A DNA stretch of 13,828 nt. Origin: a virus (taxonomy: Duplodnaviria; Heunggongvirae; Uroviricota; Caudoviricetes; Autographiviridae). How positions within the stretch are numbered: position 1 is the first letter of the stretch; every line of letters begins with the position of its first letter. The stretch lies in the IMG/VR virus record IMGVR_UViG_2660238008_000004; one strand, 5' to 3'. The position numbers were made by a program, and so were the translations under genes. The notes beneath the pieces were generated by a model that was not told the DNA's origin, did not search any database, and saw only the letters and a list, made by a program, of their open reading frames with translations. Below, one piece after another: positions 128 through 13,826 of this stretch.

Positions 128-355
128 TGAGCAGTGTGTATTGAGTCCTTTTGTAGCTAAAGCTATTACAGATATTCCCGGCTTGAAAAATTGCACGTTT
201 ATGGTTGCCCCTCCCTCAACTGTATAGCTCGCCCGCGCCCCCGTGCGCATGTGCGTGCCCGCGCGTCAGGGGTCGCTGAGAAAACCCTAAGATTTTGCTC
301 ATCCGAGACAACCGTTGCAGGCGCGCGTTGCCGGGGCACACTACTAGTGTTTGAT

Positions 356-1067: not shown

Positions 1068-1133
1068 TGACCTACAAGCGAATGAGGTGCTACGACTGGC
1101 CGTTACTGGGCTGTGGGTGATGGATGACCTACA
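1066..1133. repeat. 11-bp direct repeat GATGACCTACA (1066-1076 and 1123-1133) overlapping the stop codon of the serine recombinase gene
   Basis: Exact 11-mer twice, 57 bp apart, unlikely by chance. Function unknown; possibly part of a recombination or regulatory site. Confidence 0.5.
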
Positions 1134-1770
1134 GCTTTTGTATTTATTTCAGAGGGTTATGTTATACGTAATATCATAACGATATGATTTATAATGTATT
1201 TTCGTGTTACTTGCGGCTCTCGATGTGAAGAGGTGGCGGGGCTTTAGCCGTGCCAGACGATGAACATCGAGATCAGATTGTGAATGTGAGTTATCACTGA
1301 ACAATTCGAGGGATGGGGCAGGGGAAGGGATCAAAGGCTGCGTTGTCCAATCACTAAGCTAGATTTGAAGCTGGTCAACACGTTAGTAGTATCTTTAAAG
1401 TTGCATTTGAAATACATGTACAGGAAAGGGTTCTTCCCTTACATCCCTTCTCCTAAATGTAGTTACGAGTGCTTCGCTCTCTTCACTTGCTGCGCTTCTC
1501 GCTATGCTCCAGCCCGCTCCATCGCCTTTGGCTCATTCCCGGTCTTCGCCCGCTGCTGATGCTCGGCGACTCTACGCAACCGTGCTTGCCGTGGCAGGCA
1601 ACGCGGCGGGGATGTGTAGTGGAACGGTACTCTTTATCGGTATTGTTAATTTAATCAATCATATACTGTTATCGGTAGGTATTCTTCAAAACATCTTCAT
1701 TCATTTCTGTATCGTTCAATCATCTTTCTTTTTCGTTTCCTTTCAGGTCTTAGCCGTCGGTCATTGGTCT

Positions 1771-1876
1771 TACTGCCTGCTGTGCTACTGCCAGCTATGG
1801 CACGCCGTCACGGTTACTGTCTGTCACCTGTCCTACTGCCTTCACTGTCTGCCGTCTGTCAGTCCTACGGTCTGCC
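1771..1876 (+). repeat. Iteron-like array: five same-orientation copies of YACTGYC (1771, 1786, 1815, 1834, 1844) plus related GTCTGCC/GTCTGTC copies (1847, 1854, 1870) in a pyrimidine-rich tract
   Basis: Repeats seen directly in a region with no credible ORF; followed by an AT-rich block at about 1930-2040. Interpretation as replication-origin iterons or another protein-binding array is inference. Confidence 0.45.
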
Positions 1877-2330
1877 ATCCGTCATCAGTTCGGCGCTCGC
1901 TTGTTTCGGCTGCGCCGCGCTCGCTCTGCGTATCTAGCGATACTATATCACTATAGACACTTTCATAATTATCTATTGATATCAGTAACTTATATTTTTA
2001 ATTTTAAAGGCTACTAATAAGGAGATATAGAGCATTACTTTCCCGCTTTTGACCGACAAAAATCGCGCTGTTAAGTATTGCCAGCCCAGGCTCAGTAAGG
2101 CTTAGCGAGGTTGTGGTTAAAAATTGACCTAATGAAGGTATCTACTAAGGAGAAAGAATAACTCCCGAAGCGCGACAAACTCTCCGATTTTGAAAGTGAC
2201 TATTAAGGCAGATAAAGACACTGACACTGTTGCCGACATGAAAACCTCTATAAGGGCAGAGAGTCTGCCGCACCTGTACCACCGCCCCAACCTGAGCTAA
2301 TACCTACCCCTATTTTCTGGAGATTTCACC

Positions 2331-4175
2331 ATGCCAACAAACCTACGCCGCCTGCTTGCGCAGGCTGCCGACGCTGACCCGCTCAATACTGCGGACGCAG
2401 ATGTACAGCAAATGATCGCTGACGGGGTTGTTATTCGACGTTCCAAGATATGCCCCGTAAAGCGTAAGCCCGTTAAGGCGGCATACAACACAAAGACCGA
2501 AGAGTTTTATTACAATGCAGATGGCTCCGCGATGACCTTGCGGGAGTGGCGAACGCTGCACGGTGTTCAACCGAAGAAACAAAAACAGCGCTCTGACGCT
2601 GGGTTGCGGCAAGTCATCCAGCCCGGCGACGCGATTCACTGCCGACGCGCTGAGATTGAGCAATGGCTAAATAAAAAGCCTGCTCGTTATGTTGAACCAC
2701 TGCCGCCAGATTTCCCCGGCGTTCGCGTAGACGATGCCGCATTGAAACCGCGCGAGCACGCCGTGCCGGAATCAACAACCGGACAGAATGCTTTTCTCAA
2801 AGCCTGCCGCGAGTTTCTCATTTGCGATGAGAAGACCATGCGCCGAATTAACAGGGGCATGGGTAAACTGGAAGCGATGCGTAACGCAGATTTCAAACGC
2901 TACGGAGACTCAGGGGAGTTTCGTCAATTTTGGTGTGGAGAGTCGAAGCCTACCGAAGATAGATTTAATAATACAAATCATCATTGTGACCCGAACGGCT
3001 TGGCTGCTTCGCCGTCTGTGCCGCCACTGAATACTACGCCGTATGAGTTCCGCCCCCTGGCTCGCTGTGACCGAAACGCACGCGTTAGCCTGCTGCCACC
3101 TGATGGGCTGGAGTGGAGGCCGGGGCAATTGTCTGTTGCTGATGCGATCTTTTCCCGTGGCAGTGATGTGCTTGCCGTTCTGCCTACTGGGTATGGCAAA
3201 AGCGCTGCCTTCACTTACCCATTGATTTATGAATCCCGCGCTGGCGTTGGCCTGTCTGTTATCGTTGTTCCTACTAATACCCTTAAGCGTCAGATTCTCC
3301 GCCAGTTGCGGGAGGCTGGCGTTCACGCTGTGGCATTTGGTGACAAGCTGCCGAGGCACCGCAATGCGCAACAACTGGCGGGGCTGGCTGCCGGGGCGTT
3401 CCGGGTTGCAGTCGTTTCGCCTGAACATCTGGTTCCGTCGAGTCAGGTTCTCGCGGCGCTGATGGCTTATGGCGTTGATCGTTTTATTATCGATGAGGCA
3501 CACACGGTCAAAGACTGGGATTTCCGCCCAGCTTACGACGCAATGCAGCACACACTACAGAATGCCTTTCCTTCGGCTCAACGCTGCGTGTTTACGGCTA
3601 CGCTGCTACGCGAAAATGAGCGCAGTTTAATGGAGTCGCTTGGCTGCCGTGGCGATTACGTAACATTCCGCGCTGATGTTGCTCGCGAGAATATCCAGTT
3701 GACGCCAGTCAGACAGTGCCGCGAACGTTTCCGAGCGGCTATTGGTCTGGTCGAGGCTCTGCCGAAAGAAGAGAAGACGCTTATTCTCGTCAATGACCTT
3801 AAAACGTTGCGGGCGTACCTGAAACTCTTGGGCGACCGGGCGCGGCCATATCACTCGAAGACGATGCACCTGAGCAACGAGGAACGCCACGCAAACGCTG
3901 AGTGGTTTGCCTCTACGCCGGGCGCGATTCTTATTGCTACTAAAGCCTTCGGGCTGGGTGCTGATGTTCCTGATATCCGTAACGTTGTCGTGACATACGT
4001 CCCCGATGATTTGCCTGATCTCGTTCAGATGATTGGACGAGCCGGGCGCGATGGGGAACCTGCCCGCGCTTTTCTGCTGTGGTCATCGCTGGCGCTGGAT
4101 GTTGCGCCTGATGAGCTTGCTTACTTCTACCGCCCTGAAAACTGCAACTGGCAGTACATCGCTAAATACCTCTGA
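2331..4175 (+). CDS. RecQ-family (SF2) DNA helicase core with an unrecognised ~270-aa N-terminal extension; lacks RQC/HRDC C-terminal domains; 614 aa
   Basis: Walker A LPTGYGKS preceded by a motif-0-like segment (RPGQLSVADAIF); motif Ia IVVPTNTLKRQ; motif II with the RecQ signature IIDEAHTVKDWDFRPAY; motif III FTATL; motif VI MIGRAGRDG about 40 aa from the C-terminus. GGAG ribosome-binding site 8 nt upstream of ATG 2331. Confidence 0.85.
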   Translation: MPTNLRRLLAQAADADPLNTADADVQQMIADGVVIRRSKICPVKRKPVKAAYNTKTEEFYYNADGSAMTLREWRTLHGVQPKKQKQRSDAGLRQVIQPGDAIHCRRAEIEQWLNKKPARYVEPLPPDFPGVRVDDAALKPREHAVPESTTGQNAFLKACREFLICDEKTMRRINRGMGKLEAMRNADFKRYGDSGEFRQFWCGESKPTEDRFNNTNHHCDPNGLAASPSVPPLNTTPYEFRPLARCDRNARVSLLPPDGLEWRPGQLSVADAIFSRGSDVLAVLPTGYGKSAAFTYPLIYESRAGVGLSVIVVPTNTLKRQILRQLREAGVHAVAFGDKLPRHRNAQQLAGLAAGAFRVAVVSPEHLVPSSQVLAALMAYGVDRFIIDEAHTVKDWDFRPAYDAMQHTLQNAFPSAQRCVFTATLLRENERSLMESLGCRGDYVTFRADVARENIQLTPVRQCRERFRAAIGLVEALPKEEKTLILVNDLKTLRAYLKLLGDRARPYHSKTMHLSNEERHANAEWFASTPGAILIATKAFGLGADVPDIRNVVVTYVPDDLPDLVQMIGRAGRDGEPARAFLLWSSLALDVAPDELAYFYRPENCNWQYIAKYL

Positions 4176-4212: not shown

Positions 4213-4650
4213 ATGCCTGTTACCGAACATGCGCAGCGTCGTGCTGCGCGTGCGGATGCGCTCATCACCGCACAACTAGCTTTCGCCCTGAATGGGTACA
4301 ACTGGGATGAACTGGCCGAACCTCATCGCAAGACCCTTAATCGTGAGGCCATCATTCGCGAGGTATTTACACCGCTGGAGCGATATTGCCTGCTGAATGA
4401 TTGCGAGCCGTGGGAGTGTCTGGCCGCTGTACTGAACCGCATGAAAAGGCCGGATGGCTCGCGTCGCTGGAAAGCCGTCCGGTTGTCCGACCGGGTTTTC
4501 AATGGCCGGGTGCATCCGGTACGCAAGACTCCTGATGAAGTTTACGCCGCCATTGCCCGCCGTTTGTTTCTGCCGAAGCCCGTGCATCAAGAAGTGATTC
4601 AGCACATCCGTGCGCTAGGCCTGTTACCAGTTGGAGATAACCACCAATGA
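4213..4650 (+). CDS. Hypothetical protein, 145 aa
   Basis: ORF with GGAG ribosome-binding site 8 nt upstream; co-directional with the helicase and 37 bp downstream of it; no recognisable motif. Confidence 0.6.
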   Translation: MPVTEHAQRRAARADALITAQLAFALNGYNWDELAEPHRKTLNREAIIREVFTPLERYCLLNDCEPWECLAAVLNRMKRPDGSRRWKAVRLSDRVFNGRVHPVRKTPDEVYAAIARRLFLPKPVHQEVIQHIRALGLLPVGDNHQ

Positions 4651-4856
4651 CGAAATCTGAATTTGAAGCCGGAGCATGGGAACTAAAAACCCTGCTGCTG
4701 GGTGCGTTGACGCGCAGGCTTAAGGAGGACGAGGCGGGAGAGTCACGCATGGCTGCTGCCGAGTTGTCATCCTGCGTGAACTTCCTCAAGCAGAACGCCG
4801 CCGACTCGCCTGATACAACCTTTAACAACGTGTTCCCGGAGGATGACGACCAATGA
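4647..4856 (+). CDS. Hypothetical small protein, 69 aa
   Basis: Start ATG overlaps the upstream stop (ATGA at 4647-4650), indicating translational coupling; GGAG 11 nt upstream. Confidence 0.5.
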   Translation: MTKSEFEAGAWELKTLLLGALTRRLKEDEAGESRMAAAELSSCVNFLKQNAADSPDTTFNNVFPEDDDQ

Positions 4857-7450: not shown

Positions 7451-7509
7451 CGCACGTCTGTGCCATGACGATGGCGCGGGCTTCATCAACCTACGTAGGA
7501 GTTTTGTTT

Positions 7510-8505
7510 ATGGCTGATACTTCGTACAGTCCCGATCTGTTTCGCCCACATTATGGCGGGGTGGAATCCGACAATGATATTCACATCGAGGCTTATGACC
7601 GGGATGTCCAGACCCGTTTAGAGTCCAAATCCGTATTTCTGGCCGAGGGGCTGTCTACATACAGGCCGCTGAAAGGCAGCAACCAATACCGCATTGATCG
7701 CCTGAGTGGTGATCTTGAGGTGAAGGGCAGAACCGCAGGGCAATCGCTGGAGCCTACCGCCGTTAAGTCGGACAAGTTGGTTATCTCTGTGGATACGCTG
7801 AGTTATATCCGCGTCCCGATTGACTATCAGGACGATTGGACAGCACCCACATTTCGCGCAGAGCTGAGCCGCAATATCGGCACTGCGCACGCTAAGTTCT
7901 ACGACGAAGCGCACACCATCCAGTTAATCAAAGCGACTGACTTTGTACCGCCGCCGACACTGCAACCAACGTTTAACCCGCTTACGAATAACGTTGTCTC
8001 GCTCGACCTGACAGCGGGGAGCGAAGAGGACGCCGCAAACGAATTGGTTCACGCCGTCAAAGCGGCTGCTAATCGCTTCCTCACTGAGAAAGATATTCCG
8101 GTGGCCGAGCTGGTGCTTCTCATTGACCCTGCATGGTTCAGCATCCTGATGGAACATAAGAAGCTGATGAACGTCCGTTACAGCCGGGATAGTGGCAACG
8201 ATTACGCATGGCGTCGCGTTGGCTATGTCGCTGGGGTGCGAGTCATTGAGCTGAACAGTTACCCGCAGGAAGTCATTACCGGGCATGAACTGGGCGCTGA
8301 TTATGACGTTACCGCAGAGGAAGCGATGACGAGGGCGACGCTGTTTAAACCTTCCTCTGTGCTGCTGACGGTCGAAGCGCAGAGCGTCATCAATCGCCAG
8401 TGGGATGATGAACGCGAAATGACAATGGTGATGGACTCATATCGCCTGTTCAACGTTGGGCTGCGTCGTCCTGACTGCGTTATCAATTTCCGACAAGCTG
8501 CATAA
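7510..8505 (+). CDS. Hypothetical protein, 332 aa; possible HK97-fold major capsid protein (weak resemblance to T7 gp10-type capsid proteins)
   Basis: Strong AGGAG ribosome-binding site 8 nt upstream of ATG 7510 (preferred over the track start 7465, which has none). By-eye similarity to recalled T7 gp10 segments (KLVISVDTLSYIRVPIDYQDD versus KVITIDGLLTADVLIYDIEDA; LIDPAWFSIL versus CDPDSYSAIL; C-terminal GLRRPDCVINF versus GGLRPEAAGAVVF). The product call is tentative. Confidence 0.4.
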   Translation: MADTSYSPDLFRPHYGGVESDNDIHIEAYDRDVQTRLESKSVFLAEGLSTYRPLKGSNQYRIDRLSGDLEVKGRTAGQSLEPTAVKSDKLVISVDTLSYIRVPIDYQDDWTAPTFRAELSRNIGTAHAKFYDEAHTIQLIKATDFVPPPTLQPTFNPLTNNVVSLDLTAGSEEDAANELVHAVKAAANRFLTEKDIPVAELVLLIDPAWFSILMEHKKLMNVRYSRDSGNDYAWRRVGYVAGVRVIELNSYPQEVITGHELGADYDVTAEEAMTRATLFKPSSVLLTVEAQSVINRQWDDEREMTMVMDSYRLFNVGLRRPDCVINFRQAA

Positions 8506-9758: not shown

Positions 9759-10159
9759 GAAAAGCTATGCGGGGCTATCTGGAACACCTTGGCAATATGC
9801 CACTGGCGGAACGGATTACAAACGCTGCTGCATTCGAAGATGTTTATCGCTTCCTGTTGAATGGTTCCGGGCGGCTGGAGTTGCGCCGCGCTGATGTGGC
9901 CGCTGTCCGTGTCTTCCTGTGGAATTATCAATACCGACGCTGTGCGGTGACAGGTAAGCCGCTGCGCCTTGCGTCTGCCGTGCTGGATCACTGCCACCGA
10001 ACCGGGCGCGTGCGTGCTGTGGTGCATCGCTCTGCTAATGCTGCTGAGGGTGGCTATTATGTAGGGCGGGTGTGTGGACTCTCACCCGGTAGCATGAATT
10101 TCATGCTACCAGCCTACCGCCGCCACTACAAGGGGCTGGGTATTATTTATCCAGCATAA
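9731..10159 (+). CDS. Endonuclease VII-like protein, 142 aa
   Basis: Segment CAVTGKPL...LDHCHRTGRVRAVVHRSANAAEG parallels the T4 endonuclease VII core (C-x2-C ... DHDH ... VRGLLCNLCNAAEG) recalled from memory, with several zinc-ligand cysteines replaced by His/Ser. Start 9731 overlaps the upstream gene by 28 nt. Confidence 0.55.
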   Translation: MVTRTDQLLRKAMRGYLEHLGNMPLAERITNAAAFEDVYRFLLNGSGRLELRRADVAAVRVFLWNYQYRRCAVTGKPLRLASAVLDHCHRTGRVRAVVHRSANAAEGGYYVGRVCGLSPGSMNFMLPAYRRHYKGLGIIYPA

Positions 10160-10246
10160 CATTGGTCATGGCTCTATTTATTTTATTTTCATGAGGTTAC
10201 ATGTTGCTGTGGCTGCCTATTTACTTGCTCGTATTTAAAACAATTC

Positions 10247-10275
10247 TTGACGGATTGATGTAGATTGCGTAATCT
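10247..10275 (+). promoter_or_regulatory. Sigma70-type promoter: -35 TTGACG (10247-10252), 17-bp spacer, -10 TAATCT (10270-10275), with AT-rich upstream tract
   Basis: Near-consensus hexamers with ideal spacing, about 60 bp upstream of the small ORF at 10337; seen directly. Confidence 0.5.
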
Positions 10276-10336
10276 CCACTTAAAATAACTGCCTACAATG
10301 TGTGCAGGCCAATCACCGAAAAACAGGAGGTACAAT

Positions 10337-10492
10337 ATGACAAAGGCGAAAATCAGCCCCGTATCGACTGGTATGAGTAGGGATGCTCTGAATGCTCTTA
10401 TCAAGACAACGCGTACTGTAGCGCGTAAAAGTTCCAGAGAAACTGATGAGCGTTTAGCTGAATACAGTAAAGTACATGCCGCTTGCAATTGA
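10337..10492 (+). CDS. Small basic protein, 51 aa; candidate antitoxin/partner of the downstream toxin-like gene
   Basis: Strong AGGAGG ribosome-binding site 6 nt upstream of ATG 10337; overlaps the downstream ORF by 17 nt; does not resemble YafN/Phd-type antitoxins as I recall them. Confidence 0.5.
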   Translation: MTKAKISPVSTGMSRDALNALIKTTRTVARKSSRETDERLAEYSKVHAACN

Positions 10493-10949
10493 GTTTGATT
10501 GCTGTGAAAAACTCGCCAATGATGGCGAGTTTCTTCCTTTTTATCAGGAGTTCTGTCGCTATAAGCAACTAAGTGCAGAGCATTCCCGCCCCCGATATTC
10601 CATCCAAAAACTTTTTGCATCTATTTCGCTGCTCTTTGGCAGAGATAGGGACAATGTTGATGAAGATAAGCCGTATCATCAGAAAAGAGAAGGTTTAACA
10701 CATCTACATGTGAGGCAGGAAGACAGTGTCTGGGAGGATGACAATGGGCATCCACTGGTACAATGGAAATGTAAAAGTAACAGCTATTTGATATATTCGT
10801 ATTTTGTATTCTCAGGTACAAGGCACTACTATATTGTTGATTTTATTGATCATGATGCCCATGCAAATTGGGACAATCAAGAAGCAATACAAATGTGGAT
10901 AGATGAAGCTAAACAATATCGAGAACGTATAACAGAAGCGGCTGCATAG
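10476..10949 (+). CDS. YafO-like toxin candidate (type II toxin family), 157 aa
   Basis: By-eye similarity to E. coli YafO recalled from memory: EFCRYKQ versus DFISYKR, LFGRDRDNVDED versus IFGRDALYDDSF, HLHV versus HIHL, and C-terminal HDAHANWDNQEAIQMWIDEA versus EPHKLARDNNQMHKIGKMAE. Poor own ribosome-binding site, consistent with coupling to the upstream small ORF. Confidence 0.45.
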   Translation: MPLAIEFDCCEKLANDGEFLPFYQEFCRYKQLSAEHSRPRYSIQKLFASISLLFGRDRDNVDEDKPYHQKREGLTHLHVRQEDSVWEDDNGHPLVQWKCKSNSYLIYSYFVFSGTRHYYIVDFIDHDAHANWDNQEAIQMWIDEAKQYRERITEAAA

Positions 10950-10984: not shown

Positions 10985-12193
10985 TCATTTAATTAATTCA
11001 TAATCTATTAATTCAATATACCGGCGCATCTCTAAAGGGGATGCTGCGTTTTTTGAATATGTCTTAAAACTCTCAGTGCTACCTCGTTCGTGGCCTACAA
11101 GCAGAGCGATCCTATCTTCTGGCACTTGAGCACGGTCGAGTTGTTGCACAAACGCATGGCGGAGTGAGTGAAACACTTTTCTCTCTGCGGCAAGTTCGCC
11201 AAGAGCTTTACGCTTTGCCCGTGTGAACTGCTGCGTATGCCACGTTGAGCGCTTCCCATCCGCCCGGTCTGTAATTGACGCGTGATTGAACAGAAAACCG
11301 CTATGTGTGGTTTTGAGCAATGATTTCACGAGGGGGATTAGCTTGCTGTGTACTGGGACGATTCGTGCCGCGCTCTTGGTCTTCCCCTCGGTGATCTCAA
11401 AGCACAAAACGCCCTCGATGGTTTTAATACTGCTCTCACGCAGCGTACATATTTCATTGATCCGCATACCGCTGTAAGCACCAATAGCCGTTACCGCCTT
11501 CATCTCGTCATCAAGCAAGGTATAGACCTTTGCCAGCTCTCCCGGTGCGAAGACTTCATAGCTGACCTTGCTGCTTTTTGCTTCGAGTGCATGACCACGC
11601 CAAGGGTTATCCTGTGGCGCATCGTGATAGCGATTGCGTGCCAAATCCCATATCTGCGCCAGTGCACTGATATAGTTCTGGATGGTTTGGGGCGCTCGCT
11701 CAGTTTTGAGTTTATCTAACCAGCCTGTAACTATGGTTCGGTTAATATCTCGCAACTGAACATCTTTCTTTTTCAGGTGGGTTAACAGCACCTCTACGGC
11801 TTTATTGGTCTTGGATAGCGTGGTTAGCTTTCGCTTCTCGCTGTATTGAAGCAGGTACAAATCACGCATTTTTAGCAAGGAAGGGCAAGCCTGAATCGAT
11901 GCACCAAACGATGCGGGGGCTTCCTTGGCGTACACACTGACACGGCGTAGCTCATCAATGATTTGGTCTACAGATGAGCCGCCTTGTGGCTTTAGCAGAT
12001 TCCGTAAGCGAGTCCATTCCAGAGCAATAGCATCGCGAAACAATCGCGCTTGCCGTATGTCTCGTGTCCCTGTGCTTTTCATAAAGTAGCGTTTCCCTTG
12101 GAACAGGTGACGCATATAGCTGGGGATAGCTATCCGCACGAGGTAATTCCCGCAGGGATCTAAAACTAGATAACGATCTCTCTTGAAACTCAT
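10985..12193 (-). CDS. Tyrosine recombinase / phage-type integrase, 402 aa
   Basis: Catalytic residues in conserved context: GMRINEI (Arg), HSLRHAF (His-x-x-Arg), LVGHERGSTESFKTYSK (His and Tyr nucleophile); N-terminal arm-binding-like region (GKRYFMKSTGTRD). Its 5' end lies 134 bp from the tRNA fragment. Confidence 0.9.
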   Translation of the reverse strand: MSFKRDRYLVLDPCGNYLVRIAIPSYMRHLFQGKRYFMKSTGTRDIRQARLFRDAIALEWTRLRNLLKPQGGSSVDQIIDELRRVSVYAKEAPASFGASIQACPSLLKMRDLYLLQYSEKRKLTTLSKTNKAVEVLLTHLKKKDVQLRDINRTIVTGWLDKLKTERAPQTIQNYISALAQIWDLARNRYHDAPQDNPWRGHALEAKSSKVSYEVFAPGELAKVYTLLDDEMKAVTAIGAYSGMRINEICTLRESSIKTIEGVLCFEITEGKTKSAARIVPVHSKLIPLVKSLLKTTHSGFLFNHASITDRADGKRSTWHTQQFTRAKRKALGELAAERKVFHSLRHAFVQQLDRAQVPEDRIALLVGHERGSTESFKTYSKNAASPLEMRRYIELIDYELIK

Positions 12194-12326
12194 ACAAACC
12201 CCGGTTATGTTGTCGGGGCTTTTTCATGGCTAAACAGTCTGTGAAATGTGCCGGGGTTATGAGCTTTATTCTAGCTAGTTCAACGAGTTAACGATGATTA
12301 TTGAAGCAAGCTAAGCCGCCTAAACC

Positions 12327-12357
12327 CGTGCCGGTTCGAGTCCGGCCTTCGGCACCA
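12327..12357 (+). other. 3'-terminal fragment of a tRNA-Leu gene (T-arm, 3' acceptor strand, CCA), not a complete tRNA; candidate att core / direct repeat
   Basis: CGTGCCGGTTCGAGTCCGGCCTTCGGCACCA: T-stem GCCGG/CCGGC around loop TTCGAGT, then CTTCGGC-A-CCA. Matches the 3' end of E. coli tRNA-Leu(CAA) leuX as recalled. No D-arm or anticodon arm upstream; upstream sequence diverges at 12326. Confidence 0.75.
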
Positions 12358-12370
12358 AAAGTATGTAAAT

Positions 12371-12479: not shown

Positions 12480-12531
12480 GTGAGTATACTAATGAGTATA
12501 TTTGCCGATTCGATATTGCTTGTATACTCAC
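12480..12531. promoter_or_regulatory. Repeats in the integrase upstream region: GTGAGTATAC (12480-12489), TGAGTATA (12493-12500) and inverted GTATACTCAC (12522-12531)
   Basis: 10-bp inverted repeat with an extra direct copy, 27-78 bp upstream of the integrase start; candidate integrase arm-type sites or operator. Seen directly; function inferred. Confidence 0.4.
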
Positions 12532-12557
12532 GAGATACCAATGGAAGGAAGACCATT

Positions 12558-13826
12558 ATGGCCCTAACGGATACTAAAGTTCGCTCTGCGAAACCTGAGG
12601 AGAAAGAGTATTCACTTGTTGACGGCGACGGCATGTCCTTACTTGTAAAACCTGGCGGTTCAAAGTATTGGCGATTTCGTTTCCGTTTTGGCGGTAAACA
12701 ACATTTGATGGCGTTCGGCGTTTACCCGGATGTTTCACTGGCGGATGCGCGGAAGAAAAGGGAAGAGGCCAGAAAGCTGGTAGCTGCTGGTATCGATCCT
12801 CGTGAGCATAAGCGTGCTGTGAAAGAAGAGCAGGCGAAAGAGATTATTACTTTCGAGAAGGTTGCCAGAGAGTGGCTCGTAACCAACCAAAAATGGTCGG
12901 AAGATCATGCTAATCGTGTAAAAAAGAGCCTGAAGGACAATATCTTCCCGGCAATTGGTGCTCGCAATATTGCTGAACTGGGCACCCGCGATCTGTTAAT
13001 TCCTATTAAAGCCGTGGAGAAATCCGGACGTCTTGAAGTGGCTTCCCGCCTTCAACAGCGCACCACGGCCATCATGCGTTATGCAGTGCAAAGCGGGTTA
13101 ATTGATTACAATCCGGCGCAAGAGATGGCGGGGGCGGTTGCTTCCAGTAATCGACAGCATCGTCCGGCGCTGGAGTTAAAGCGTATCCCGGAATTACTCC
13201 AGAAAATCGATGAATACACCGGCAGGCCACTAACCCGCTGGGCAACCGAACTTACTCTGCTTATTTTTATTCGATCCAGTGAGCTGCGTTTTGCTCGCTG
13301 GTCAGAAATCGATTTTGAAACGTCAATGTGGACCATCCCGCCTGAGCGAGAACCTATTCCCGGTGTGAAACATTCTCAGCGAGGTTCAAAGATGCGCACA
13401 CCTCATCTGGTGCCGCTTTCAAAGCAGGCGCTAGCGATCCTGAAGCAGATAAAACAGTTCTGTGGCGAACATGAACTGATTTTTATTGGCGATCACGATC
13501 CACGTAAGCCCATGAGCGAGAACACGGTAAACAGTGCGCTACGGGTGATGGGTTATGACACTAAGGTTGAAGTTTGCGGCCACGGCTTCCGCACAATGGC
13601 CTGTAGTTCGTTAATTGAGTCAGGACTATGGTCGAAGGATGCGGTGGAAAGGCAGATGAGCCATATGGAACGCAATTCGGTGAGGGCGGCGTATATCCAT
13701 AAAGCGGAACATCTGGATGAGCGTAAACTGATGTTGCAGTGGTGGGCTGATTTTCTGGATGCGAACAGAGAGAAGAGTATCAGTCCGTTTGAATATGCAA
13801 AGGTTAACAATCCGCTGAGAAGGTGA
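12558..13826 (+). CDS. P4-family tyrosine integrase, 422 aa; stop codon at 13824-13826, two bases before the window end
   Basis: N-terminus MALTDTKVRSAKPEEKEYSLVDGDGMSLLVKPGGSKYWRFRFRFGGKQ is the characteristic P4-type integrase arm-binding domain; C-terminal catalytic region (HGFRTMACS, RQMSHMERNSVRAAY). Start chosen at ATG 12558 with AAGGAAG ribosome-binding site rather than track start 12480. Orientation matches the tRNA fragment, as in tRNA-then-int islands. Confidence 0.9.
   Translation: MALTDTKVRSAKPEEKEYSLVDGDGMSLLVKPGGSKYWRFRFRFGGKQHLMAFGVYPDVSLADARKKREEARKLVAAGIDPREHKRAVKEEQAKEIITFEKVAREWLVTNQKWSEDHANRVKKSLKDNIFPAIGARNIAELGTRDLLIPIKAVEKSGRLEVASRLQQRTTAIMRYAVQSGLIDYNPAQEMAGAVASSNRQHRPALELKRIPELLQKIDEYTGRPLTRWATELTLLIFIRSSELRFARWSEIDFETSMWTIPPEREPIPGVKHSQRGSKMRTPHLVPLSKQALAILKQIKQFCGEHELIFIGDHDPRKPMSENTVNSALRVMGYDTKVEVCGHGFRTMACSSLIESGLWSKDAVERQMSHMERNSVRAAYIHKAEHLDERKLMLQWWADFLDANREKSISPFEYAKVNNPLRR

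Follow-up and report, generated by a model that had tools for sequence, protein, structure and literature searches.

A non-coding region of an enterobacterial island as the probable control region of a satellite of virulent T7-like phages

What role can be played by more than a kilobase of DNA that separates two genes of a chromosomal island and encodes no protein of its own? The question is raised by the viral record IMGVR_UViG_2660238008_000004 (Autographiviridae), analysed here as a stretch of 13,828 nucleotides that we call the window, in which a gap of 1263 bp (1068-2330) lies between a serine recombinase gene (492-1067, + strand) and a DEAD/DEAH-box helicase gene (2331-4175, + strand) assigned by a domain match. 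A first-pass annotation had proposed as its content an origin, a packaging site, a long 5' leader of the helicase operon or a non-coding RNA gene. Comparison with related islands and with phage genomes suggests that the gap is probably a composite, namely the cis-acting control region of a phage satellite, which copies DNA from the genome end of its helper phages and holds a cluster of promoters for the phage polymerase; the promoter activity and the origin and packaging roles are proposed from sequence comparison. Beyond the view of the first reading lay the relationship of the island to T7-like phages, the phage-copied part of the gap and, in its second AT-rich block, the sites that resemble promoters of a phage RNA polymerase.

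The gap is non-coding, a conclusion that is surer than the composite explanation and that follows from the lack of PGAP genes and of codon periodicity, from frequent indels and from open reading frames (ORFs) that are not conserved. The ORFs that it contains span only 53-150 aa. Of 5426 complete E. coli genomes, 58 contain a match to its sequence; in 50 of these the match extends over 80% or more of the gap, at identities of 90-99.8%, and no PGAP gene lies under it among the matches listed. In four pairwise comparisons, substitutions in the gap were even across the three codon phases (p 0.53-0.76) and 3-14 indel blocks fell within it, whereas the neighbouring helicase gene had no indels and, in three of the four, an excess of third-position changes (p 1e-10 to 6e-23), the fourth having 9 differences only. 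In particular, strain 550 differs from the window at 9 of 1845 nt in the helicase and at 112 sites plus 14 indel blocks in the gap, which thus behaves as a separate, fast-evolving module. The earlier view that no credible protein gene occupies 1068-2330 therefore holds, and the base composition described with it is also correct: AT-rich at 1101-1300 (GC 0.42) with a TATAAT at 1190-1195, relatively GC-rich at 1401-1600 (0.545) and AT-rich again at 1901-2100 (0.395).

We read the window as an integrative satellite of 15-16 kb, with a presumed life cycle that depends on virulent Bonnellvirus podophages of the T7/phiKMV supergroup. This reading is based on the satellite major capsid protein (7465-8505, + strand), which is 55% identical to the capsid protein of altidsur, one of these podophages of ~42 kb, and whose closest phage relatives are Bonnellvirus capsids. 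The phages are virulent, carry all genes on one strand, encode their own RNA polymerase and have direct terminal repeats. The island encodes a tyrosine integrase (10985-12193) and is bordered by attR (12327-12358, + strand), a 32-bp repeat of the tRNA-Leu 3' end; its relatives also lie at tRNA-Leu between 25-32-bp repeats of the tRNA 3' end, and they measure 14.8-16.4 kb, or 35-39% of the helper genome. Domain and similarity scans of the island proteins detected no virion gene besides the capsid protein. The island thus agrees with phage satellites in general: it has an integrase and att sites, is much smaller than its helper, and combines a lack of most virion and lysis genes with helper-derived cis sites or morphogenesis genes. 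The only helper-like proteins are the capsid protein and a 69-aa product (4647-4856, + strand) that resembles the N-terminal part of the Bonnellvirus small terminase at 42-45% over 40-45 aa; the similarity is weak but reproducible (pairwise E 8e-6 and 2e-5), the ORF has no PHROG match, and its product may redirect packaging. A limited literature search returned no account of a satellite whose helper is a Bonnellvirus or a T7-like, strictly virulent coliphage.

Alignment of five islands, complemented by BLAST against eight more from other genera, divides the gap into four parts: Block A (1068-1345) and Block B (1489-1640), which belong to the satellite, Block C (1765-1994, + strand), which is shared with phages, and Block D (1995-2330), the leader of the helicase operon. 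The counterpart of Block C in Bonnellvirus, with 87-98% identity, is situated roughly 90-100 bp inside the left direct terminal repeat. The match extends to 15 Bonnellvirus records and falls in DNA without annotation, bounded by the endolysin gene on one side and the first early gene on the other; the phage stretch that holds the match comprises 1.5 kb of non-coding DNA, the endolysin gene being the last gene. In phage J8-65 the annotated terminal repeats of 259 bp begin 72 nt after the endolysin stop, and the helper repeats are about 260-275 bp long. In altidsur, alignment places the repeat at ~10195-10468 and the equivalent of Block C at 10556-10778, just before three early promoters of sigma-70-like type.

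A second phage-derived element is found outside the gap, at 174-263 (+ strand). Its first 44 nt (174-217) share 91-93% identity with a phage sequence whose end coincides with the left boundary of the terminal repeat, and the ~50 nt that follow resemble the start of the repeat with 73-80% identity. Indeed, the 40 nt of altidsur that end at this boundary (10159-10198) correspond to 177-217 of the window, and the match in J8-65 (40683-40770) spans the annotated repeat start at 40723, which puts the equivalent of the boundary at about position 215. Nearly all of the satellite loci examined have the 44-nt element, at a distance of 1.9-3.3 kb upstream of the helicase, and its identity remains 93-98% between several genera. 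Both flanks of the helper's concatemer junction (174-217 and 1765-1994), near-identical to the DNA on either side of the terminal repeat, are thus found in the satellite in the order and orientation of the phage; between them, where the phage has the repeat, the satellite has ~1.5 kb of its own DNA, which comprises Blocks A and B and the gene of the recombinase with its Resolvase and HTH_7 domains. The homologies themselves are more certain than the composite explanation that is built on them. As for the origin and packaging candidates of the first-pass annotation, they gain support by homology only, in that 1765-1994 is near-identical to helper DNA beside the terminal repeat.

A further component of a concatemer junction may be found between these flanks. 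At the T7 junction there is a class II pause or termination signal, ATCTGTT (10.1101/2021.01.11.426313). A pattern that resembles it, ATCT(G/A)TCT(C/T)TTTT, occurs exactly once per genome in four Bonnellvirus phages, beginning 13 nt to the right of the annotated repeat in J8-65 and at the corresponding place in the other three. The window holds a one-mismatch copy, ATCTTTCTTTTTCG (1722-1735, + strand), a weak match ~30 nt to the left of Block C. Perfect copies of ATCT(G/A)TCTCTTTTG were also noted inside the island near the tRNA end in the relatives L008 (8494), L011 (7683), L013 (1700) and L015 (2321); those of L008 and L011 lie ~40 nt after the tRNA, in an island part that is missing from the window. 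Copies of this type near the tRNA end or in the integrase gene may be terminators for the phage polymerase.

Block C also overlaps the repeats that had been described as an iteron-like array. The DNA is indeed repeat-rich, and consists of a strand-specific cluster of GTC triplets (1756-1883, + strand): between 1750 and 1900 there are 13 GTC and no GAC, where the window-wide mean is 1.5 per 150 nt. Regularity is the part of the description that does not hold, as Tandem Repeats Finder reported no tandem array in the window and the triplets are irregularly spaced. An iteron-type origin, with at least three regular direct repeats of 17-22 bp and an AT-rich stretch, was considered and rejected; the repeats are short, irregular and strand-specific and form no tandem array. 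The recognition triplet of the T7 gp4 primase is GTC. By analogy, the cluster is a candidate for T7-type primase sites or for repeats bound by the terminase.

The second line of evidence comes from a motif shared with the phages. Altidsur, glasur, Kc261 and J8-65 each carry the sequence TGAAAG-NNNN-CTA in four corresponding positions. One copy follows the RNA-polymerase gene and leads into the late genes, a second follows a hairpin and precedes the middle genes, a third lies where a late gene starts, and the fourth stands on the minus strand at the genome end. An exact k-mer search did not detect such copies and an ungapped plus-strand search missed them because of an indel; they were found by reading the intergenic regions. 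The tetranucleotide is GTGT in altidsur, GTGA in glasur, GCTA in Kc261 and GTAA in J8-65, and is uniform within each phage except for one J8-65 site with GTAT. In parallel, altidsur, glasur and Kc261 have RNA polymerases of ~90% identity, and 9 of 20 residues differ in their most variable 20-residue window, which aligns with the specificity loop of T7 RNA polymerase. A motif of ~20 bp thus stands ahead of gene blocks in the direction of the genes and has bases that co-vary with the specificity loop, as T7-type promoters do, and TGAAAG-N4-CTA is the pattern expected of a putative promoter of a single-subunit polymerase.

Some features of the phage copies are worth recording. The copy at the start of a late gene overlaps the start codon (ATGAAAGT...; altidsur 31501, glasur 21115, Kc261 20046, J8-65 19871), which is odd for a promoter. 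Beside the terminal repeat, a full-strength phage promoter faces the repeat and points away from all genes (altidsur 10732-10749, - strand; also glasur, Kc261 and J8-65); it may serve to prime replication or help in the processing of the concatemer junction. The early region of altidsur (12081-12217) holds AGCCTATAGCGTCC-TGCG-GGGCGCTATGTGAA, a hairpin motif that has been proposed as a phage promoter in a paper on KP34-like phages.

The same motif is recognisable in the satellite. At the end of Block C stands a leftward phage-type promoter, ATTATGAAAGTGTCTATAGTGA (1948-1969, - strand), which scores 28 bits on a matrix that was derived exclusively from phage sites and gives no weight to the tetranucleotide. 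The 20-nt core of this promoter, TATGAAAGTGTCTATAGTGA, recurs unchanged in the altidsur late promoter and in the altidsur genome-end site, and the whole 22-mer is identical to the latter. Alternative alleles of this promoter and of positions 1862-1890 are common to particular satellites and particular phages, a pattern that points to repeated exchange or matching. On the + strand, Block D contains the promoter-like sites P1 to P4: the weaker P1, TTTAAAGGCTACTAATAAGGAGA (2003-2025), with a GCTA-like tetranucleotide and a score below the matrix threshold; P2 (2129-2150), with GTAT; P3 (2187-2208), with the GTGA of phage glasur; and P4 (2235-2256), with ACCT and followed by the hairpin GGCAGAGAGTCTGCC. 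The matrix gives 28.0 bits at 1969 (- strand), 15.5 at 2187 and 17.1 at 2235. The pattern TGAAAGTNNCTANNNNGG, with at most two mismatches allowed, has four matches in the 13.8-kb window, all within 1948-2256, when 0.85 would be expected window-wide, and a repeat finder independently unites 2133, 2191 and 2239 (plus 2007) and identifies 1953-1969 as an inverted repeat of the family.

This clustering extends to the relatives, as the 28 satellite loci have 3.4 matrix matches per kb in 700-nt leaders against 0.11 per kb elsewhere, and promoter-like sites are also present in relatives with a different Block C. At homologous sites it is mainly the tetranucleotide that varies among satellites, the flanks being unchanged: GTGT, GTGA or GCGA at P2, GCAT or GTAA at P3, and ACTT or ACAT at P4, one relative (L034) having a perfect site of the J8-65 type. 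The long 5' leader proposed from the first reading is thus supported, with 2003-2330 as a promoter-bearing leader of the helicase operon, and a GGAG ribosome-binding site (2319-2322, + strand), conserved in all relatives, lies 8 nt before the helicase ATG. In some relatives the leader includes an extra 145-aa ORF just before the helicase (L010 13383-13820; L017), which PGAP calls a hypothetical protein. In the other direction, the leftward promoter faces the GTC array, and the pyrimidine-rich + strand of 1441-1947, which with 36.5% purines is the most pyrimidine-rich ~500 nt of the window, begins exactly at this promoter; a leftward transcript would therefore be purine-rich.

Could the phage-like segments be passive scars of recombination, the real content of the gap being the island's own origin and/or a regulatory RNA in Blocks A and B, unrelated to any helper? 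Both of these blocks are conserved throughout the relatives, compensatory changes mark a stem-loop of Block A, and Block C is exchangeable, being swapped for unrelated sequence in some relatives and missing from some that are apparently intact. Scars would, however, hardly be expected as two separate phage-derived elements that flank the same segment in phage order and orientation, one of them 93-98% identical across several genera, and with Block C closer to the phages (87-98%) than the capsid genes, which reach 78-82% DNA identity over short stretches only. Moreover, matching alleles recur in phages and satellites, and promoter-like sites are retained where Block C differs. Taken together, these points make the explanation by scars unlikely, if worth keeping in mind.

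The motif itself could have another reader. The phiKMV-like phages have four sequence-specific nicks at CGAC-N5-CCTACTCCGG, a motif of similar shape (10.1101/619015), so that TGAAAG-N4-CTA could mark nicks instead of promoters, or sites of some other phage protein, and the gap could be a nicking or binding cluster for replication or interference. The four strong motif copies per Bonnellvirus genome and the HNH and endonuclease VII-like nucleases encoded by the satellite would agree with this. What argues for promoters is that each phage keeps to one tetranucleotide, which changes together with the specificity loop of the RNA polymerase, and that the sites stand just upstream of gene blocks and in gene direction, the usual setting of T7-type promoters; nor is it obvious what purpose would be served by three to six nicks of one strand in the 300 bp before an operon. 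Sites for a nickase or a similar protein are therefore an improbable explanation of the cluster.

If the gap is the control region that we favour, 1948-2330 would be a divergent promoter region for the single-subunit RNA polymerase of the helper. The diversified tetranucleotides would mean that infection by any of several Bonnellvirus types activates the operon of helicase, capsid, nuclease and toxin genes, the array allowing polymerases of several helper types to turn it on. The toxin gene is the last of the rightward operon, and the helper polymerase would thus express it. Block C, the possible pause signal at 1722 and the 44-nt element at 174-217 would jointly mimic both flanks of the helper's concatemer junction, most likely so that transcription-primed replication by the helper and the helper terminase replicate the excised island, cut it and package it. 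In this scheme Block C would be a helper-specific, transcription-activated module for replication and/or packaging, and the left end would be produced by a terminase cut at a place marked by the 44-nt element. In short, the island would sense the infecting phage, which would probably copy and package it. More speculatively, a satellite terminal repeat from ~215 to ~1710 would hold the recombinase and the repeats upstream of its gene, and recombination between the two copies of this repeat could close the injected DNA into a circle, in the manner of Cre-lox in P1; the mostly rightward genes would suit a transcription-driven DNA entry like that of T7. Only tentatively can it be proposed that these islands, including that of the enteropathogenic E. 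coli (EPEC) prototype strain E2348/69, form an undescribed Enterobacteriaceae family of satellites of virulent T7-supergroup phages, which combines sensing of many helper species by a diversified promoter array, mimicry of the junction flanks and, where the helper has its short repeat, a terminal repeat of ~1.5 kb that bears the serine recombinase with its site and serves for circularisation before integration.

Several observations weigh against this account. The rightward sites score 10-17 bits, compared with 18-28 for genuine phage sites, and their downstream halves read TAAGG where the phages have TAGTG or TATTG; since these sites are weak and differ downstream, their recognition by helper polymerases can only be proposed. 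The resemblance to the phiKMV nick motif weighs in the same direction. The alternative Block C of satellites of the LT883142 type has no match in known phages. An own copy of the helper's terminal repeat was not found, only its first ~50 nt being recognisable, and the right boundary of the helper repeat has no significant match in the satellite, with local alignment scores within the range of shuffled sequences. Internal direct repeats able to define a short satellite terminal repeat were likewise not found. No metagenome or virome contig starts or ends at the predicted terminus, and no copy of the island of packaged size is present in IMG/VR. As to the pause signal, an equally good one-mismatch match lies antisense inside the integrase gene at 11762 and is conserved in L008 and L011. 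Finally, the functions of Blocks A and B can only be guessed at.

Block A is specific to the family and is present in all satellite relatives, whatever their recombinase allele or phage-like module. A consensus scan placed a terminator-like hairpin with a T-rich tail (1108-1147, + strand), conserved in relatives, immediately behind the recombinase gene. The -10-like hexamer TATAAT (1190-1195, + strand) is conserved as well, as TATAGT or TATATT in relatives; the consensus scan found no good -35 element for it, and in the sigma-70 promoter and terminator scan matches were no commoner than chance. Two conserved stem-loops follow on the + strand, HP1 (1218-1272) and HP2 (1276-1306). In HP1 six pairs change on both sides and stay paired, the double-sided changes are found in at least two lineages, and the observed covariation was reached by none of 500 shuffles. 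The + strand downstream of the hexamer is purine-rich (0.59), and this, together with the invariant G-U pair(s), favours a rightward RNA from Block A, for which TATAAT may be a host promoter reading through the hairpins.

Block B is GC-rich and its primary sequence is nearly invariant across genera, as in GATGCTCGG and GTAGTG. Its interpretation as a structured RNA was dropped, as no covariation was detected on either strand; our guess would be that a protein encoded by the satellite acts on this DNA site, or that the block forms the inner end of the satellite terminal repeat. Thus, the compensatory base changes that had been named as something to look for are found in HP1 and are not found in Block B, and the RNA-family search was empty, with no Rfam match at gathering thresholds in the window or up to E=5 over 100-2400. 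The RNA candidate is left with one covarying stem-loop, a weak case. The variable segment between Blocks A and B is flanked by an 18-nt inverted repeat with a G-rich and a C-rich arm (1320-1337 / 1437-1454), inside which lies a palindrome of the type TGCATTT-N-AAATGCA (1400-1420); this module is present twice in LT883142.

How does the proposed control region compare with known systems? There is a likeness to P4 and its helper P2, in that the island is integrative, has about one third of the helper's size, presumably carries a packaging site of the helper, offers hotspots for defence cargo and would have its morphogenesis or late genes activated by helper transcription factors at dedicated promoters. 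The helper here is, however, a virulent podophage of the T7 supergroup and that of P4 a temperate myophage; the signal would be the helper RNA polymerase at phage-type promoters instead of an Ogr/Delta-type activator of the host polymerase; and the ends would be direct terminal repeats instead of cos. In the larger ORFs, Pfam and PHROG scans detected only the DEAD-box helicase, the capsid protein, the HNH nuclease and endonuclease VII, some small ORFs lying outside the Pfam scan, and the hallmarks of P4 (alpha primase-helicase, Sid, Psu, Delta and Eps, together with a cos site of the P2 type) were not found; the phage homology of the island is to Bonnellvirus and not to P2. With PICI and cf-PICI elements the island shares its chromosomal location, an integrase, a replication module and, putatively, packaging signals of the helper type, and with cf-PICIs also an own capsid protein and an HNH nuclease. 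Instead of the full capsid and packaging module of cf-PICIs, only these two components were detected, with no portal, protease, head-tail connector or large terminase, and the ORFs scanned include no AlpA-type regulator; the helpers also differ, not being lambdoid or HK97-like siphophages.

A eukaryotic parallel is given by the Sputnik virophage, whose promoters copy the late promoters of mimivirus. A parasite of a virus would in both cases use the transcription motifs of its helper and be expressed only in infected cells; the differences are that Sputnik belongs to a eukaryotic giant-virus system and that the satellite has several specificity variants side by side. The junction of T7 concatemers, with terminal repeat, ATCTGTT, pacB/pacC, phiOL and phiOR, finds a putative counterpart in the Bonnellvirus repeat, ATCTGTC-T-run signal, short-repeat arrays and phage promoter, and it is the flanks of this counterpart that the satellite copies; the Bonnellvirus promoter is leftward, the sequences are unrelated to those of T7 and their function in these phages is putative. 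Engineered T7 phagemids show that circular DNA can be replicated and packaged when it carries a phage origin (promoter plus AT-rich DNA), pac and terminal-repeat sequences (Chung and Hinkle 1990; PMC13236587), and indeed they require the T7 origin, the pac site and the terminal repeat (PMC13236587; PMC9860248). The gap and 174-263 hold natural counterparts of the promoter and of both junction flanks, with the differences that the satellite is natural and has its own genes, that 1.5 kb of satellite DNA replaces most of the repeat and that the promoter beside the repeat faces it. By analogy, the island may be said to work like the satellites of the P4 and PICI type and like a natural T7 phagemid, although it lacks the defining features of P4-like elements, of cf-PICIs and of iteron origins and has no Rfam match.

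The remaining content of the island bears on whether it could be the decayed prophage of a temperate T7-like phage, the gap being a functionless fossil of a genome end. In favour of this are the capsid gene, the homology to a phage genome end, the phage-type promoters and the existence of temperate T7-like phages (LUZ100). Decay is at odds with a gene order that comprises variable cargo, recombinase, gap, helicase with small ORFs, capsid protein, HNH nuclease, endonuclease VII-like nuclease, toxin/Abi cargo and integrase, a set of ~15 kb with intact ORFs that recurs across genera. The island is common in assemblies and was found in Escherichia, Kluyvera, Enterobacter, Trabulsiella and Rosenbergiella; an identical helicase protein is present in 659 blocks of the assembly collection, and the helicase is under purifying selection. 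Moreover, genes for portal, large terminase, tail, DNA polymerase and RNA polymerase have left no remnants in the island, so that a decayed prophage is quite unlikely. Least likely by far is a hidden gene such as the 150-aa ORF at 1504-1956: although gene callers report a product of 150-170 aa in some assemblies, the ORF has no Pfam or PHROG match and no PGAP call, measures 144, 134 or 94 aa or is absent in relatives, shows no codon-phase bias in its frame and crosses pyrimidine-rich repeat DNA shared with non-coding phage DNA.

Other parts of the island were noted in passing. Slots for variable cargo are found at both ends and hold AbiTii, a TIR-domain protein, AbiJ, an Eco29kI restriction-modification pair, DUF3800 and a YafO-family toxin, as listed from the relatives L006-L011 and L063-L070 and from 10476-10949 of the window. 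Directly after attR, a second integrase gene of the P4 type (Arm-DNA-bind_3, Phage_int_M; 12480-13826, + strand) suggests a tandem island at the same tRNA site. At the other end, positions 1-128, which we take to be an IS1 end, adjoin the island ~45 nt to the left of the 44-nt phage-like element and have probably truncated a cargo region; a search with the whole window matched thousands of records at many places per genome, IS1 transposase being listed in one match. Two copies of GGTGTCATCAAT, spaced by 50 nt (356-367, 406-417), precede the recombinase gene and are followed by the related TGCTACCATCAAT (434-446); this region is 96% conserved in relatives with the same recombinase allele, and the repeats may be res-like sites of the recombinase or operators.

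If the proposed control region is real, it would extend satellite parasitism to a group of phages that is among the best studied, and to phages used in therapy. The diversified promoters for helper polymerases would then be an arms-race evolution that is legible in DNA and would represent a new logic of sensing, and the satellite would be a natural tool for the study of the replication origins and packaging signals at Bonnellvirus genome ends. Such a satellite could also explain the spread of islands that carry defence genes at the leuX hotspot.

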